A stretch of DNA of 64,000 nucleotides from positions 20,329 to 84,328 of the forward strand of contig CAZQBY010000003.1 of assembly GCA_964592405.1 (NCBI GenBank), in the 5' to 3' direction. This stretch comes from an uncultured archaeon (lineage in GTDB: Archaea > Altiarchaeota > Altiarchaeia > JAFGQM01). The position numbers and the translations under genes were made by a program. This document shows, piece after piece, positions 5,960-11,469 of the stretch; the first letter of the stretch is position 1; the number at the start of each line of letters is the position of its first letter. Below the pieces are notes generated by a model, which saw only the letters and a program-made list of their open reading frames with translations, did not search any database and was not told where the DNA came from.

Positions 5960-6190
5960 TTATTCATCAATGGTGGTATACCCGGTCTCGTCCACTATCT
6001 CGCGAATGGTGCGGGGAGTCTGCCTTCTGGTATCAAATAGTATCGTTACGACACCGCTGACATAATTGGCCTTCACATCTTCTATCCCCCCGGCAGAATT
6101 CCTTATCATTGTCTCACACCGCCGGGCATGGCCCTCTGTGAACAGTCCATCCACCCTGAGGGTCATCTTTGAGAGCCTCTTCTGGGACAT
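5960..6190 (-). CDS. degenerate heavy-metal-associated (HMA/CopZ-like) domain protein
   Basis: LRVDG....GIEDVKANY..VTILFD....I...GY ferredoxin-like HMA pattern, but GMxCxxC is replaced by GLFTEGH. Confidence 0.65.
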   Translation of the reverse strand: MSQKRLSKMTLRVDGLFTEGHARRCETMIRNSAGGIEDVKANYVSGVVTILFDTRRQTPRTIREIVDETGYTTIDE

Positions 6191-6469: not shown

Positions 6470-6778
6470 ATGACCTGTTATATAATACCAACAGCGGCTG
6501 CTGTTGTCCATTATCTTGTAAGAACCCGCAGGCCTAGTTTAAAGCACAATACCCACCATCTATGGCTGAATCTATTATTTCTGGGTGGGGCCATCTTCGG
6601 TGTGATTGACCATTTATGGAATGGAGAGCTTTTCCTTTTTGGGGAGAATCTCCTCTTGGACTTGACACTGGGGGTTACAATTACTGCCTCAATAATAGTT
6701 GTGTGGGCCCTTATTGTGGTGTTGGACAAAAGCTTAGCTAGGGATATCGTGCAAAAACCAGAATTTTTACAGGGATAA
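6470..6778 (+). CDS. small membrane protein
   Basis: Three hydrophobic segments; LLFLGGAIFGVIDHLWNGELF. Confidence 0.65.
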   Translation: MTCYIIPTAAAVVHYLVRTRRPSLKHNTHHLWLNLLFLGGAIFGVIDHLWNGELFLFGENLLLDLTLGVTITASIIVVWALIVVLDKSLARDIVQKPEFLQG

Positions 6779-6863
6779 AATGACATACCTAGAGGAATCT
6801 TTGCTACCGGGTTGATTGGAATCTTTATGTTATCTATGGTTATATCAATCATCGAGCGTGAGG

Positions 6864-7184
6864 ATGCATGAGACCGTATTCGCAAACAGGATAATAGAGG
6901 AGGCAAGGAAAGAGGGTGAAATCACTGGAATAAGTGTGGAGGTGGGCGAGCTTGCGCATATCCCGGCCCGGGAACTCAAGGAGGCATTAGAAAGGCTGGT
7001 CGACTGGGATATTGAGATAATAGAGAAAAGGGCGAAGGTGAGATGCCCCTGTGGGTTTGAGGGGCATCCGAAGATTCTGGAAAAGGGCCACGATTACACT
7101 CTCTTCCAGTGTCCAAGATGTGCCAGAGTCCCTGAAGTCATGGAAGGTGGGGATATTATATTAAAAGAAGTAAGATGTGTCTAG
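6864..7184 (+). CDS. hypA: hydrogenase nickel metallochaperone HypA
   Basis: Start at MHE Ni-binding motif; VGEL; CPCG and CPRC zinc ligands; GGDIIL. Confidence 0.92.
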   Translation: MHETVFANRIIEEARKEGEITGISVEVGELAHIPARELKEALERLVDWDIEIIEKRAKVRCPCGFEGHPKILEKGHDYTLFQCPRCARVPEVMEGGDIILKEVRCV

Positions 7185-7384
7185 CCATCCCTGGACGGGT
7201 TATCGAGGTCAGGGGAGACGTCGCGACCGTAGACTATGGGGGCGAGAAAAGAAAGGCGAGGATCGAGGATATCCGCGTGTCTCCGGGAGATTATGTGATA
7301 GTCCAGTTCGGATTCGTGATGCAAAAGCTGGCAGAAGAGGAAGCATTGAAGAGTCTGGAGACATGGACTAGTTTGAAGGACTGA
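7175..7384 (+). CDS. hypC: hydrogenase maturation chaperone HypC
   Basis: MCLAIPGRV N-terminus; PGDYVIVQFG (conserved His replaced by Gln). Confidence 0.92.
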   Translation: MCLAIPGRVIEVRGDVATVDYGGEKRKARIEDIRVSPGDYVIVQFGFVMQKLAEEEALKSLETWTSLKD

Positions 7385-8075
7385 CGCTTCCAATAGCCTC
7401 GAGGGTAAGCCTTTCCAGATTCTTTTTCTGCGTTTTGGCGAGTACTTCTACTGCATGGTCCCAATGAATAGAGACATAATCTCCCTCTTTTATGAATAAC
7501 AGCTCCGGATCGAACAGAATTTTTTTCTCCCGAGGTTCCGAGAGGAGAAACCCGTCTTCCAAAAGGAGCTCTCTGCGGACCACGGTGGCGTGGTCATCAG
7601 TTACATCATCTACGCGGCCGCATGAAATCATGCACTTGTCCATGTTGCCGACCGTGCTCGGGAGGGAGCCGGTAGTCCTCCCCGGACCAACGTAAAGGAC
7701 GTGGAAGTTGTGGGTGAGGGGCATCGTCCGGGGGGGGTTCTTCAGCAGCTCGTCACGGATGGATTCAGGCAGTCCCCTTTTCCCCAGAAGGGAGAGCAAG
7801 GCCGTGAGATCCCGCTCTCCATATCCTCTGGACAACTCATTGCCGATCCAGTAGGCCTCGACCACGTCCGGATCAAAGGGCTGCAGACCGTGCCTCTTCG
7901 AGATTATCTCCAGGTAGGGATACAGGGCCTCGAAGCGGGTCAAGAGCCTGGCCGCTTCCCCGTCGTCCCCTAGGATGAATCTCCTCAATCCCTCCGCTGC
8001 TCCGGGGGGGCCGCAGAAGCCCAGCTTGTTCGTTATCAGGGAATACCTGCAACAAAGCCTAACTCCTTCCATCAT
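7368..8075 (-). CDS. DUF6390-like hydrogenase-associated protein with C-terminal HypC-like domain
   Basis: RYSLITNKLGFCGP, FEALYPYL, VVEAYWIGN, HNFHV, GDYVSIHW motifs; family name recalled from memory. Confidence 0.75.
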   Translation of the reverse strand: MMEGVRLCCRYSLITNKLGFCGPPGAAEGLRRFILGDDGEAARLLTRFEALYPYLEIISKRHGLQPFDPDVVEAYWIGNELSRGYGERDLTALLSLLGKRGLPESIRDELLKNPPRTMPLTHNFHVLYVGPGRTTGSLPSTVGNMDKCMISCGRVDDVTDDHATVVRRELLLEDGFLLSEPREKKILFDPELLFIKEGDYVSIHWDHAVEVLAKTQKKNLERLTLEAIGSVSPSN

Positions 8076-8967
8076 ACACCCTCAGCTTGGTCATTATCCC
8101 CTCAGGAATCCGACCGCTGAGAAATACCATAGTCACGACCCCGGAAATCAAGAACGCCGTGCCCAATATGTGGCCCGGGAGTATGGTCCCGTTCATCAAC
8201 GTGGCAGAAAGGAGCGTGGTGATCGGGCTGCCCAGAAGCAGGATAGAAGTCGCCACGTGCGCTTTCACGGTCTGGAGTCCTGTGTAGAAGGTAATCACGT
8301 AAAGGAAGAGGAAGCCGGAGGTGAGCAGCACCCAGGGCCAGTGCCCGACCAGGGAGCCCGCCTCGGCTATCGAGCCCGTGGCCGTCAAGAAGATCAGAAG
8401 GAACACGGCACCGAAGAACATTCTCCCGAATGCCACTATTGAAGGTGAAAGTGTGCTTAGGGTATGCTTGGATATAATTACCTCCACTGCCCAAAACAAG
8501 GTAGCCAGCAGGATAAGCAAGTCCCCCATTCCCAAACCTAACGGGAGATTCAAAAAGATAGCATTTCCTGCGAGCAGCAGGGTGGCAGGAATCAGGATTC
8601 TCTTGCCCAGCCTCTCCTTTAGTAAAAGGGCAGCGAGCACTGCCACATAGATGAACATGGTCTTGTGGATAAAGGCGCCCCTAGCGGCCGTGGTCATCTG
8701 GAGGCCGTTGAAGAACAGCAGGAAGGGGATGCTCCCCCCAAAAAGACCGATCGCAGCCAGACGCAGCCAGTCCCTCCTCCCCAGGACCCTCAGTTCTCTG
8801 AACTTCCTGACGAAGAGTATCAGAGCGAACAACAATAGCGCCGTGATAAGGTTCTTGCTCCAGGTATAAACGCTGGCGTTGATTCCCGATACGCCAACCC
8901 TGTTTACAAAAATGGATACTCCACTGATGACGGCAGTAGCTAGGACCAGATAAACCCCCCTTGCCAT
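8059..8967 (-). CDS. EamA/DMT family transporter
   Basis: About 10 TM helices in two repeats; GDLLILLATLFWA. Confidence 0.88.
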   Translation of the reverse strand: MARGVYLVLATAVISGVSIFVNRVGVSGINASVYTWSKNLITALLLFALILFVRKFRELRVLGRRDWLRLAAIGLFGGSIPFLLFFNGLQMTTAARGAFIHKTMFIYVAVLAALLLKERLGKRILIPATLLLAGNAIFLNLPLGLGMGDLLILLATLFWAVEVIISKHTLSTLSPSIVAFGRMFFGAVFLLIFLTATGSIAEAGSLVGHWPWVLLTSGFLFLYVITFYTGLQTVKAHVATSILLLGSPITTLLSATLMNGTILPGHILGTAFLISGVVTMVFLSGRIPEGIMTKLRVYDGRS

Positions 8968-8999
8968 TTTTCATTATGATAAGCAAAGAATAGATAAAA

Positions 9000-9362
9000 A
9001 TGCTCAAGGTGTTCTGTTTCGGGAACGAGTGGGTGGAGGGCGACAGCTTGGCCAAGGAGCTGGCCGATGAATTGGAGATTGACGGAGTCAAGTTCATAAA
9101 ATGTGACGATGTTGAGGATGTGGAAGACGGTGTCATCTTGGATGTGGTGAGGGGGCTGGATGATGTCCAAGTGGTTACGGAGCTGGACCGATTCAAATCC
9201 CTCCAGCCATGTTCGGCTCACGATTTGGACCTGGCGTTCTTCCTTAAACTGCTGAAGGAGATGGGGCATCTGAACGAAGTGAAGATAATATGCCTGCCTA
9301 TGGGGATGGAGAAGGAAAGGGCCAAAAAAGAGCTTAGGAGGCTACTCCCAGACAACATCTAG
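9000..9362 (+). CDS. short hydrogenase maturation protease-like protein
   Basis: FCFGNEWVEGDS, VILDVV, SAHDLDL match the HycI/HybD GN..DD / D / H pattern; convergent with the large subunit. Confidence 0.75.
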   Translation: MLKVFCFGNEWVEGDSLAKELADELEIDGVKFIKCDDVEDVEDGVILDVVRGLDDVQVVTELDRFKSLQPCSAHDLDLAFFLKLLKEMGHLNEVKIICLPMGMEKERAKKELRRLLPDNI

Positions 9363-10613
9363 GAAATGTGTTGAACAGGAGATGCAGGGATCGTAGGCCC
9401 TGATGAGTTGCTCGATCTTGGATACTATCACGTCCCGGCTCTCGCCCAGGAGCGAAGGGAGCAGGGCCCTGATATTCTCCTCCATATTCTCCAGATTCTG
9501 CGACGTGGGGGTTGTGATGTTTATCCTCTTGGCGTAGCCATCCTTGTCAAACTCGTATTTGTGGAAGAGGATTCCCCGGGGCGCTTCTATGGCTCCGAAA
9601 CCCACGCCTTTTTTCGGTCTGACATCAGCCGGGTCTTCTTTCTTTACCTTGATGGTCTTTATTATTTCCTCTGCCCTCCTAAAGCCCTCGTATATCTCCA
9701 AGGCTTGGGCGAGATTGTTCATGTAGGGCGAAAACCTCTTCTTTTCAATGAGTTGGACATAGGGCTTCGATCCCCGCGAGAGGGCATCTCCATTGTTCAA
9801 TACCCTAGCCAGAGCGCCGACCATGTAGTCCTTCCCCCCGGCGTCGACGAACTCGGAGGTCGAGCCCGGGACAAAGTATTCCCTGAAATGTTTTTCATAG
9901 TCTCTCACAGGAACACATCGAATGCCCCTACACAAGATTGTCTTGTCGCCGAAGAAATAGGGTTCGCCCTTCAGCGCAAAATAATCTCTCTCCCTTTCAA
10001 ATTCTGGGTAGCTGAGCTTGGCGAAGGTCTTCATTGCGTTCTCCGCTGCCCTCCTGATGCCCCTGACTTGTTTTAGGAGGGCATCCAGCTCCTTCTGGTT
10101 GGGTTGTTTGGAGAATCCACCCGGCAGGAAGGTGAAGGGATGCACGTCCCGCCCCCCGACGACCCTGACCATCCCACTTGCGACCCTCTTTATCTTAAGG
10201 CCTTGCTCCAAGAGCGTCCTGTGTCTCTTGACCATGCCTAGGGCGCTGTCATACCCCAGATAGTCGGGCAGGACCATGAAGTACAGGTGGAGTGCATGGC
10301 TCTGAATGATGCCGCCCAGATGCGCGAGCTCTCTGAGGGCCCGGGTCTGTTTGGAGACTGATACATTGAAGGCGTTTTCTATGGCCCTGAGAGACGCCAG
10401 ACCGTGGGCTACGGAACACACGCCGCAGATCCTCGACGAGATGGGACCCAGATCCGTGTAGAGCTGGTTCCTGAGTATCTTCTCGAAAAACCTGCTCCCC
10501 TCAAATATCTCCAAATTGGCCTTTTTGATCTTATCTCCATCTATCTTGATGGTCAGCTTCGCGTGGCCTTCAATCTTGGTGACAAATTCCTTTTTAATGA
10601 TTTTTTCTGCCAT
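9342..10613 (-). CDS. hydA: [NiFe]-hydrogenase large subunit, group 3b-like
   Basis: TKIEGH, L1 SRICGVCSVAH, EAPRG, L2 RAYDPCISCSTH followed by 7-residue tail FLDVVWE. Confidence 0.93.
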   Translation of the reverse strand: MAEKIIKKEFVTKIEGHAKLTIKIDGDKIKKANLEIFEGSRFFEKILRNQLYTDLGPISSRICGVCSVAHGLASLRAIENAFNVSVSKQTRALRELAHLGGIIQSHALHLYFMVLPDYLGYDSALGMVKRHRTLLEQGLKIKRVASGMVRVVGGRDVHPFTFLPGGFSKQPNQKELDALLKQVRGIRRAAENAMKTFAKLSYPEFERERDYFALKGEPYFFGDKTILCRGIRCVPVRDYEKHFREYFVPGSTSEFVDAGGKDYMVGALARVLNNGDALSRGSKPYVQLIEKKRFSPYMNNLAQALEIYEGFRRAEEIIKTIKVKKEDPADVRPKKGVGFGAIEAPRGILFHKYEFDKDGYAKRINITTPTSQNLENMEENIRALLPSLLGESRDVIVSKIEQLIRAYDPCISCSTHFLDVVWE

Positions 10614-11367
10614 GTTTTGATTCCTTGAGTTCCTTCGAGCCGAACCTCCTGATCTTGTTTATGGCTTCCTTTTTGGAGATGCCAAAGGATTCCAGGAGTC
10701 TTATCTCTGCGTACAGATCGGCGTTCTCCAAGGGCCCTCTGCACAGAGTACAGGGCATGTTGTTCCTTATGCACAGGGCATTACAGCCGCCGTTGGTTAT
10801 GGGACCCAGACATTCTATCTTGTTCAGCATATAACAGTCAGGCTTCCCCCTCCGCGGGCACTCCAGACAGACGGGCCCTCTGAACTCCTTGGGCTTTTCT
10901 CCTTTTATGAACTGGCTGATAAACTGAATGAATTCGTCTTTGATTATCGGACAGCCGTACATGAAATAGTCGACCTTCACGAAGTCGCTTATGGGTGAAA
11001 CTTCGATCCAGTCCCTAGCAAGCTTCTGACTGTAGATATATTTTCCCAAGGCCCTTCGCTTGAGTTGGTTTCTCATGGCCGGAATCCCCCCATGGGCCGC
11101 ACACTCGCCGAAGGCCACAAGGTATTTTGACTTAGCCCTTATCCTCTTTAGCTCTCTCATCTCATGCTTGGAGGATATCGCCCCCTCCACAAAAGCCAGA
11201 TCAAAGTCTGTTTCAGCGTTCTTTTCCTTTATGAGATGGAAATACTGGATATCCAGTTTGTCAAACAACTCGAGCAGTTCATCTAGGAAAAGGACCGTGA
11301 ACTCGCAGCCTTCGCAGCACGTAAACGAGAAGAAACCGACCACCGGCTTGCCCCTCTCCATGAGCAT
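10594..11367 (-). CDS. hydD: [NiFe]-hydrogenase small subunit (delta-like)
   Basis: TCCEGC, GECA..GG, GCP, PVCLEC, CLGPIT.GGC.ALC...PC..CRGP Fe-S ligands. Confidence 0.9.
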   Translation of the reverse strand: MLMERGKPVVGFFSFTCCEGCEFTVLFLDELLELFDKLDIQYFHLIKEKNAETDFDLAFVEGAISSKHEMRELKRIRAKSKYLVAFGECAAHGGIPAMRNQLKRRALGKYIYSQKLARDWIEVSPISDFVKVDYFMYGCPIIKDEFIQFISQFIKGEKPKEFRGPVCLECPRRGKPDCYMLNKIECLGPITNGGCNALCIRNNMPCTLCRGPLENADLYAEIRLLESFGISKKEAINKIRRFGSKELKESKHGRKNH

Positions 11368-11469
11368 TTTACCTGACTGGCAATAAATATGTACTGTGGA
11401 GAGCTGGTAGGCAAGAGCGTCTCAGGTATTGTACAGCCTGCTCAAAAGACAGAACTTGTGAATGCCGTA

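Follow-up and report, generated by a model that had tools for sequence, protein, structure and literature searches.

The DUF6390 protein encoded in a 64,000-nucleotide stretch of DNA from an uncultured archaeon of the Altiarchaeota (contig CAZQBY010000003.1; the whole stretch is referred to as the window) is well supported as an accessory of [NiFe]-hydrogenase maturation, with a domain derived from the maturation protein HypC, a probable Cys2His2 site and genetic coupling to HypC. Its context points to an undescribed way of building the [NiFe] cofactor. The reading that we prefer, and to which we give a probability of roughly 0.45, is that DUF6390 is a [NiFe] maturation factor that holds the iron unit and docks HypC, and that in genomes without HypD, HypE and HypF (HypDEF) the module to which it belongs stands in for HypD, or for HypD together with HypE and HypF. 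Passages of a 2025 review give six Hyp proteins (HypA-F) as necessary for maturation (PMC12134894). In open-access text and bioRxiv we found no paper on DUF6390, and none describing [NiFe] maturation without HypDEF or a HypC-HydE fusion; passages of PMC8204110 and PMC9431212 contained nothing relevant. The two genes of main concern, and the two domains of the DUF6390 protein, are as follows.

7175-7384, (+): HypC, 69 residues (PF01455 80.4 bits; TIGR00074 67.4 bits)
7368-8075, (-): DUF6390 protein, 235 residues (PF19927 126.4 bits, E 1.6e-36)
7635-8075, (-): N-terminal all-helical domain of DUF6390, residues 1-147 (Cys21 at 8013-8015, His122 at 7710-7712)
7371-7634, (-): C-terminal HypC-like domain of DUF6390, an OB fold plus helix, residues 148-235 (Cys148 at 7632-7634, His204-Trp205 at 7461-7466)

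The two genes are convergent with their 3' ends overlapping by 17 nt, DUF6390 is single copy in the genome, and there is no other HypC in that genome. The DUF6390 open reading frame (ORF) has a second Met at codon 2, which gives the 234-residue form P0001. The PF19927 match (cut-off 25 bits) covers residues 3-230, equivalent to positions 4-236 of the 244 in the model, and no NCBIfam model matches the protein. Four motifs recur in what follows: FCGP (with Cys21), HNFH (His122 and His125), CMISCGRV (Cys148) and VSIHWDHA (His204); the N-terminal domain also carries VVEAYWIGN.

Residues 148-231 are a true HypC homologue. A resemblance of the C-terminal part to HypC had been noticed in an earlier note on this DNA, made from the sequence alone, and we accept homology because three independent checks agree. 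In hhalign, a DUF6390 profile (A1, 35 proteins picked for diversity from the best 120 of 458 matches) aligns with a profile of canonical HypCs (A3, 21 HypCs of genomes in the window's own phylum that have HypD) over 60 columns with a probability of 94.5% and E 7.6e-8, with Cys148 aligned to Cys2 of HypC and His204 to its conserved His, which is His51 in E. coli. When the DUF6390 profile is run against all PDB sequences, the two best matches are the Thermococcus kodakarensis HypC entries 2z1c (E 0.0071) and 3vyr (E 0.0097), and here also His falls on His and Cys148 on Cys2. The third check is of the fold. The AlphaFold2 (AF2) model of the protein has a predicted local distance difference test score (pLDDT) of 96.9 and a predicted TM score (pTM) of 0.93, and a VIA comparison with 48,161 PDB representatives puts HypC 2z1c_A first (Z 5.7, root mean square deviation 1.9 Å, 70 of 71 residues, model residues 149-231), the sole chain at Z 5 or above, followed by E. 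coli HypC 2ot2 at Z 4.6. The AF2 model has the strands of an OB barrel at 151-211 and a C-terminal helix at 214-231, which is the fold of the HypC/HupF proteins.

The structural match that the earlier note looked for was thus given by VIA and more weakly by Foldseek, where the whole model has no PDB match at E<=0.001 and HypC 2z1c_B comes at rank 33 among ribosomal OB folds, with a TM score of 0.67 on the target. The HypC/HupF family models (PF01455, TIGR00074) give no match to the protein at E<=0.01, and hmmscan reports DUF6390 only. Direct BLASTP comparison with the HypC of the window gives E 5e-4 with 24 of 78 residues identical, which is weak taken alone.

The N-terminal domain modelled alone is all-helical (pLDDT 91.4). 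Its best VIA match among the 48,161 PDB chains is at Z 3.8, to acyl-carrier-like helical bundles, with none at 5 or above; the best Foldseek match has E 2.7, and a feature search of the ESM Atlas gave no usable match. This lack of a structural match does not establish a new fold. Split forms of DUF6390 were limited to two short fragments, P0123 and P0124, possibly cut by contig ends, so that there is no evidence for a free-standing N-terminal domain.

All four of Cys21, His122, Cys148 and His204 are found in 257 of the 263 relatives of at least 200 residues. The six exceptions comprise five truncated sequences and P0175, in which both Cys are gone, and the joint loss of both is seen again at locus L063. 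His204, the equivalent of the His characteristic of HypC/HupF proteins, is invariant in alignment A1 (35/35). The joint loss, and the sharing by residues 19-24 and 147-148 of one modelled interface (below), hint at a joint function of the two Cys, and the four residues most likely make up a single metal site where the domains join.

The HypC of the window begins MCLAIPGRV, and thus keeps Cys2, and in GDYVIVQFGF it has Gln44 at the His51 site. Inspection of Cys148, His204 and Gln44 bears out the earlier note in that DUF6390 has both Cys and His while the adjoining HypC has Gln, and every string that the note quotes is present in the DNA. The substitution is general among the DUF6390-linked HypCs of archaea and CPR (Candidate Phyla Radiation) bacteria, the window included: Gln is found in 40 of 50, His in five and something else in the remaining five, with Cys2 kept in all 50. 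For the window's own phylum we looked at the best 30 of 39 HypC matches (the nine left out include second copies beside large subunits), and His is present in all 22 HypCs examined from HypD-bearing genomes, while the eight from HypD-less genomes have Gln in five and His in three. Thus where HypD is absent HypC tends to have lost its His. Iron is said in passages of the 2025 review to be held by HypD C41, HypC C2 and possibly H51 (PMC12134894), and the loss of the His where HypD is absent fits this proposal, for which it gives independent comparative support.

With regard to the other maturation genes, the earlier note recorded no hypB, hypD, hypE or hypF in the window, and the same is true of the whole assembly (1.13 Mb, 22 contigs, 87.5% complete): HypD and HypB have no match in it, and HypE and HypF have only matches at the level of paralogues (at best 60.7 bits for HypE, where the cut-off is 251.6, and 38.9 for HypF, where it is 466.1). 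A scan of one genome per species gave at least 594 DUF6390-encoding stretches, of which the best 80 were kept as loci. These are from Woesearchaeota, Nanoarchaeota, Thermoplasmata, Iainarchaeota and Patescibacteria, with some Acidimicrobiia and Chloroflexota, and are biased to relatives of the window protein. Fifty genomes from the 80 loci, chosen before results were available, were searched for the Hyp proteins; the 30 omitted were mostly short contigs. HypD and HypF are both missing from 44 of the 50, and a homologue of the window's large subunit is present in 42; all are incomplete, interrelated metagenome-assembled genomes and not independent, so that these counts and those that follow are descriptive and not a test. 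HypD is found in six, HypF in six and HypE over cut-off in five, always in the same genomes (G020, in which hypD and hypE are frameshifted, G030, G032, G037, G048 and G050). Leaving out the unpublished G001, 43 of 49 lack HypD and 41 of 49 have the large subunit. We do not see, therefore, what the earlier note had named as evidence against itself, namely carriers mostly having hypBDEF and no tie to the His loss.

The same picture comes from samples drawn by lineage. In the window's own phylum 32 of 61 genomes have a match to the large subunit and 22 have HypD, 21 of these with the large subunit. There are 11 with the large subunit and no HypD, and the only three of the 61 with DUF6390 over cut-off (G000, G101 and G102) are all among them. 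An even sample of 121 genomes of one CPR class includes 36 with the large subunit, of which 23 have DUF6390 (22 over cut-off), four have HypD, none has both and nine have neither.

One Thermoplasmata genome, G020, deserves mention in its own right, as EamA-DUF6390 is accompanied there by hypF-hypD-hypE (L043/G020:C1:338882-343565), with three in-frame TGA codons in hypD and a split hypE, and the HypC linked to DUF6390 keeps its His. This genome may have been caught in the course of losing HypDEF, or the frameshifts may be errors of assembly.

Modelling of the complex, also suggested in the earlier note, supports binding of DUF6390 to HypC. For DUF6390 (alignment A1) with the Gln-type HypC (A4, 32 rows) three runs gave ipSAE values of 0.62, 0.61 and 0.64, against 0.01 for the best of three controls; the runs share at least 78% of contacts, and the pLDDT of the partner is at least 81. 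Among solved complexes 58 of 80 attain the ipSAE mark that we use, and among mismatched pairs 2 of 110; these counts apply only roughly here as we used our own alignments. To our knowledge no like complex has been solved, so it seems unlikely that the score reflects a memorised structure. In the predicted interface HypC residues 1-6 and 44-47 lie against DUF6390 residues 19-24, 97-106 and 138-148, such that the Cys-bearing faces would meet.

The surrounding genes of the window include those for the hydrogenase itself and for a transporter:

6864-7184, (+): HypA (PF01155 32.3 bits against a cut-off of 28.9; CPCG...CPRC)
8059-8967, (-): transporter of the EamA/DMT family, 302 residues (PF00892 118.4 bits, two repeats)
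9000-9362, (+): probable hydrogenase maturation endopeptidase, 120 residues (a weak match, PF01750 21.5 bits, E 2.3e-4, cut-off 23)
9342-10613, (-): [NiFe]-hydrogenase large subunit, group-3b-like, 423 residues (PF00374 101.3 bits)
10594-11367, (-): [NiFe]-hydrogenase small subunit, 257 residues (PF01058 87.1 bits; ShyD/HydD-like 165.7 bits)

The large subunit has the motifs RICGVC and DPCISCSTH and a seven-residue tail beyond the His; its best NCBIfam model is ShyA (297 bits, under the equivalog cut-off), and there is no second large subunit in the genome. The EamA gene is immediately 5' of DUF6390 on the same strand, with a 17-nt overlap. In the flanks of the 80 loci homologues of the window proteins are found as follows: EamA in 64, large subunit in 55, HypC in 49, small subunit in 46, protease in 30 and HypA in 11. 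Two gene orders recur, EamA-DUF6390 tail-to-tail with HypC in DPANN, as in the window, and HypC-EamA-DUF6390 on a single strand in Thermoplasmata. In the large subunits that adjoin DUF6390 both Cys pairs are intact and the tail is of 7-9 residues. Genes for the 3b beta and gamma subunits and for pyruvate:ferredoxin oxidoreductase also turn up repeatedly nearby, and no further candidate maturation enzyme recurs in the 80 loci. For positions 6800-11400 of the window nine sequencing runs are listed, recorded as DNA or as of unknown kind, and none as RNA. Adjacency of EamA tracks the absence of HypD, being seen at 38 of 44 HypD-less loci against none of five with an intact HypD. This EamA subfamily has S15, G16, E118, W159, E162 and R182 invariant and no conserved Cys or His. 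Several loci (L018, L044, L045 and L050 for example) have EamA-DUF6390 with no hydrogenase within 10 kb.

Fusions were sought among the 150 best of the 1606 cluster representatives that make up the family at E<=0.001. EamA is fused to DUF6390 in P0122 (558 residues), P0132 (563 residues) and the partial P0121. The stop-to-stop frames in which EamA and DUF6390 appear joined in high-GC Thermoplasmata (L024, L030, L045, L050 and L054) were rejected as fusions, the EamA matches being in other frames. Five proteins join DUF6390 to a helix-turn-helix (HTH) domain of one of four kinds, PadR (P0154), XRE (P0181 and P0261), GntR (P0226) and ArsR-like (P0201), and all five keep Cys/His/Cys/His. The same module is thus found attached to unrelated DNA-binding domains, as in one-component sensors, which suggests that DUF6390 can act as a metal or small-ligand sensor in such regulators; the window protein itself has no HTH.

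We propose the following scheme. DUF6390 would be a novel helical domain joined to a HypC-derived OB domain, and the site formed by Cys21, His122, Cys148 and His204 would hold the active-site iron unit, much as HypC and HypD do with Cys2/His51 and HypD Cys41. DUF6390 would dock free HypC, and HypC would carry the iron unit to the large subunit. In DPANN, Thermoplasmata and CPR the EamA-DUF6390-HypC(Gln) module would stand where HypD, or HypD with HypE and HypF, would otherwise act. The homology to HypC, the conserved residues, the gene linkage, the fusions and the complementary distribution are observed; that a metal is bound, that it passes to HypC and what the transporter does are what we infer. 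The earlier note raised the possibility that the cofactor is received ready-made, and this now carries more weight given the EamA transporter, which that note had not noticed.

A different setting for DUF6390 is found in 80 soil-type metagenome loci (L127-L206), related to the GntR-fused P0226 but mostly unfused. Here it is the last gene of a high-GC operon, protease-HypA-HypC-DUF6390 (L170:1802-8786 for example), 3' of a 1h-like large subunit and DUF6084, with DUF5947 further upstream, so that DUF6390, DUF6084 and DUF5947 gain a shared hydrogenase context. Of the 51 loci whose flank extends for 1.2 kb or more, 39 have HypA upstream on the same strand; the protease and DUF6084 are each found in 18 of 24 and the large subunit in 7 of 13; EamA is present in just 2 of the 80. 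The HypC and DUF6390 genes of L170 overlap at the stop of the former and the start of the latter. As a separate observation, L196:2-8792 has HypC-DUF6390 beside a CoxL-like molybdopterin dehydrogenase, CoxG and an SRPBCC protein, with no hydrogenase within 8 kb, a context that may be due to chance or may reflect a link to carbon monoxide metabolism.

Several of our findings weigh against the reading that we prefer. The HypCs adjoining soil-type DUF6390 keep their His in all 48 cases, next to a DUF6390 that has its own Cys and His, so that while the residues described in the earlier note are real, the His has not moved from one protein to the other. Four related genomes of Actinobacteria and Chloroflexi (G032, G037, G048 and G050) have complete HypDEF (it is from these, and not from the soil metagenome contigs themselves, that HypDEF status is known), and the nanoarchaeal G030 also has HypD, HypE and HypF. 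Because soil operons pair DUF6390 with HypC(His) and related genomes have HypDEF, we take DUF6390 to be a general HypC-linked maturation factor and not only a replacement for HypD. That it replaces HypD as scaffold, as proposed in the earlier note, is still an inference. Nor does any part of DUF6390 resemble HypD, the N-terminal domain having neither a [4Fe-4S] motif nor a Rossmann fold; PF01924 is absent genome-wide, the N-terminal domain is modelled as all-helical and there is no HypD chain among the fold matches, which by itself says little. HypC depends on having its Cys at a free N-terminus, and Cys148 is inside the chain. The complex score is the model's own confidence in a predicted interface. 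The HTH fusions suggest a ligand-sensing module and are also compatible with plain binding of a metal ion. Finally the module includes no gene that looks like a source of the CN or CO ligands.

A possible second way of filling the same gap was found in some [NiFe]-hydrogenase genomes that have neither HypD nor DUF6390, which carry full-length HydG together with a HypC-HydE fusion. The fusion scores up to 287 bits, over the HydE cut-off, and HydG 540-572 bits where the gene is whole. Three of the loci, all on the (-) strand, are:

L118:406-1692, (-): HydG/HypC-HydE
L120:391-1689, (-): HydG/HypC-HydE
L123:43-2709, (-): HydG/HypC-HydE

The set is present in five genomes of the window's own phylum (G073, G084, G088, G090 and G093), where the two genes adjoin each other, and in five of the nine CPR genomes with neither HypD nor DUF6390 (G116, G125, G159, G221 and, partial at a contig end, G122), where the pair is directly beside the large subunit. 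A search of five HydG/HypC-HydE genomes for an [FeFe]-hydrogenase domain was negative in all of them, and in the HypC part of the fusions the His site is occupied by Gln or Thr. From its gene content this looks like a second HypDEF-independent maturation set. It resembles the DUF6390 module in occurring with a hydrogenase where HypD is not found and in having a HypC module without the His, and it differs in having radical-SAM enzymes from the families that synthesise the CO and CN of [FeFe] hydrogenases, no such enzyme being part of the DUF6390 module. The idea that DUF6390 works with HydE or HydG was dropped because HydE-like genes are all but absent from DUF6390 genomes (one in 50, under cut-off, and none in the window's genome). 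One could go further and see in EamA-DUF6390-HypC(Gln) a complete alternative to HypD, HypE and HypF, in which EamA would import a ready-made iron-carbonyl/cyanide synthon, or a CN/CO donor, from other cells, and DUF6390, docked or fused to it, would capture this at the Cys2His2 site and pass it via HypC(Gln) to the large subunit; with HydG and HypC-HydE there would then be at least three independent routes to Fe(CN)2CO. We think it unlikely that the module does as much as this.

The main rival to an iron-unit role is one in the handling of nickel or another metal ion, or in its sensing. A Cys2His2 site suits Ni or Zn, and on this account the site would bind Ni(II), DUF6390 with HypA would replace HypB, EamA would import nickel or a nickel chelate, and the HTH fusions would be metal-responsive regulators. 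It is in keeping with this that HypB was not found in the window's genome, that DUF6390 follows HypA in the soil-type operons (39/51), that EamA-DUF6390 fusions exist, and that five HTH fusions of four kinds keeping the Cys and His show the usual pattern of a sensor domain. We nevertheless find it rather doubtful, as it leaves unexplained both the mutual exclusion of DUF6390 and HypD in CPR hydrogenase genomes (23, 4, and none with both) and the filling of the same gap by HydG and HypC-HydE. The domain is also homologous to HypC, the iron-unit carrier, and to no nickel chaperone; the membrane part of the EamA subfamily lacks a conserved Cys or His; and HypC is the gene most tightly coupled to DUF6390, by the overlap in L170, the modelled interface and the 48 adjacent soil copies.

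The protein could also be a holding chaperone specific to the large subunit, a HypC paralogue like HupF or HoxL that would protect the apo large subunit or keep it open and have no part in building the iron unit, in which case the HypDEF-less genomes would use unrecognised enzymes encoded elsewhere. Its HypC fold, its links to two hydrogenase groups (3b-like and 1h-like), and its coexistence with HypC(His) in soil operons and with HypDEF in the four related bacterial genomes would all be expected of such a chaperone, and HupF and HoxL likewise coexist with HypC in what the review says of them (PMC12134894). A chaperone of this kind would have no need of two extra invariant residues of metal-binding type in a second domain, of HTH fusions, or of a transporter partner just where HypDEF is missing (38/44 against 0/5), and the 80 loci have no other conserved candidate enzyme; we judge this account improbable. 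Very much less credible is that DUF6390 is no hydrogenase factor at all, and is a cytoplasmic regulatory or substrate-binding partner of EamA that merely travels with hydrogenase genes. EamA is indeed its commonest neighbour (64/80), EamA fusions exist and several EamA-DUF6390 loci have no hydrogenase within 10 kb, but the soil-type genes are inside hydrogenase maturation operons with EamA in only 2 of 80, the large subunit is present in 42 of 50 carrier genomes, and the homology and gene coupling to HypC hold regardless.

DUF6390 has partial counterparts among known proteins. Like HypC and HybG (PF01455, TIGR00074) it has, in residues 148-231, an OB barrel with a C-terminal helix, C-x-x-x-G-x-V, GD-x-V-x-x-H, and the Cys and His, and it differs in that its Cys is internal (148) and not a free Cys2, and is preceded by 147 residues of a helical domain in which a further Cys and His are invariant. 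HupF and HoxL, as described in passages of the review (PMC12134894), similarly have a HypC-type module with an extension, and occur beside a normal HypC in hydrogenase clusters, with HypCDEF, in aerobic soil bacteria; the extension of DUF6390 is N-terminal and is a full domain with conserved Cys and His, and, by comparison with that description, DUF6390 also occurs where HypDEF is not found. The likeness to HypD (PF01924) is in the proposed role, as DUF6390 would offer a Cys for iron next to that of HypC, with predicted HypC binding that brings the Cys faces together, and in a distribution complementary to that of HypD among CPR hydrogenase genomes. There is no likeness in sequence or fold, DUF6390 being of 235 residues against about 370 and having no Fe-S motif, no Rossmann fold and none of the GFETT-type motif of HypD. 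HupK and HoxV are intermediate scaffolds that, in passages of the same review, take Fe(CN)2CO from HypCD before it reaches the large subunit (PMC12134894). DUF6390 may likewise work with HypC-type proteins and pass the cofactor on from its source to the large subunit, but HupK and HoxV are large-subunit homologues and DUF6390 is not.

Among the genomes tested there are dozens from DPANN, Thermoplasmata and CPR with an intact-looking large subunit (four Cys ligands, a cleavable tail and often a protease gene) in which HypD, HypE and HypF were not found, and two small HypC-centred sets in place of HypDEF, EamA with DUF6390 and HypC(Gln), and HydG with HypC-HydE. If either set works alone it would be a minimal maturation kit for heterologous expression of a soluble hydrogenase, and would give a new experimental handle on O2-free synthesis of the CO ligand. 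The analysis also provides a testable function for a family of about 1,600 sequence clusters. A partly hypC-like family, 'fam002', beside CPR 3b hydrogenases is described in part of Jaffe et al. 2020 (PMC7304191), and the supplementary tables of that paper may list the same genes as DUF6390.

The distribution within the window's own family is uneven. DUF6390, the large subunit and HypC were all not found in G106 and G107, which are of the same genus, or in five other genomes of the family (63-85% complete). For this reason we regard the whole hydrogenase cassette as patchy and probably acquired sideways.

Some minor points remain on the HypA end of the locus. Just upstream of HypA are genes at 5960-6190 (-) and 6470-6778 (+), for which no homologues were found in the 80 DUF6390 loci. 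The second encodes a 102-residue membrane protein with no family assigned, and the first a 76-residue heavy-metal-associated protein (CopZ/MerP-like, PF00403 22.6 bits, under cut-off) with the usual CxxC absent from the listed ORF. HypA itself was listed with a TTG start at 6816, 48 nt 5' of an ATG at 6864, from which translation of the window sequence gives the N-terminus MHETVF. The longer form is probably an artefact of ORF listing and the ATG at 6864 the true start, with an MHE N-terminus that we take to be the nickel-binding start of HypA.

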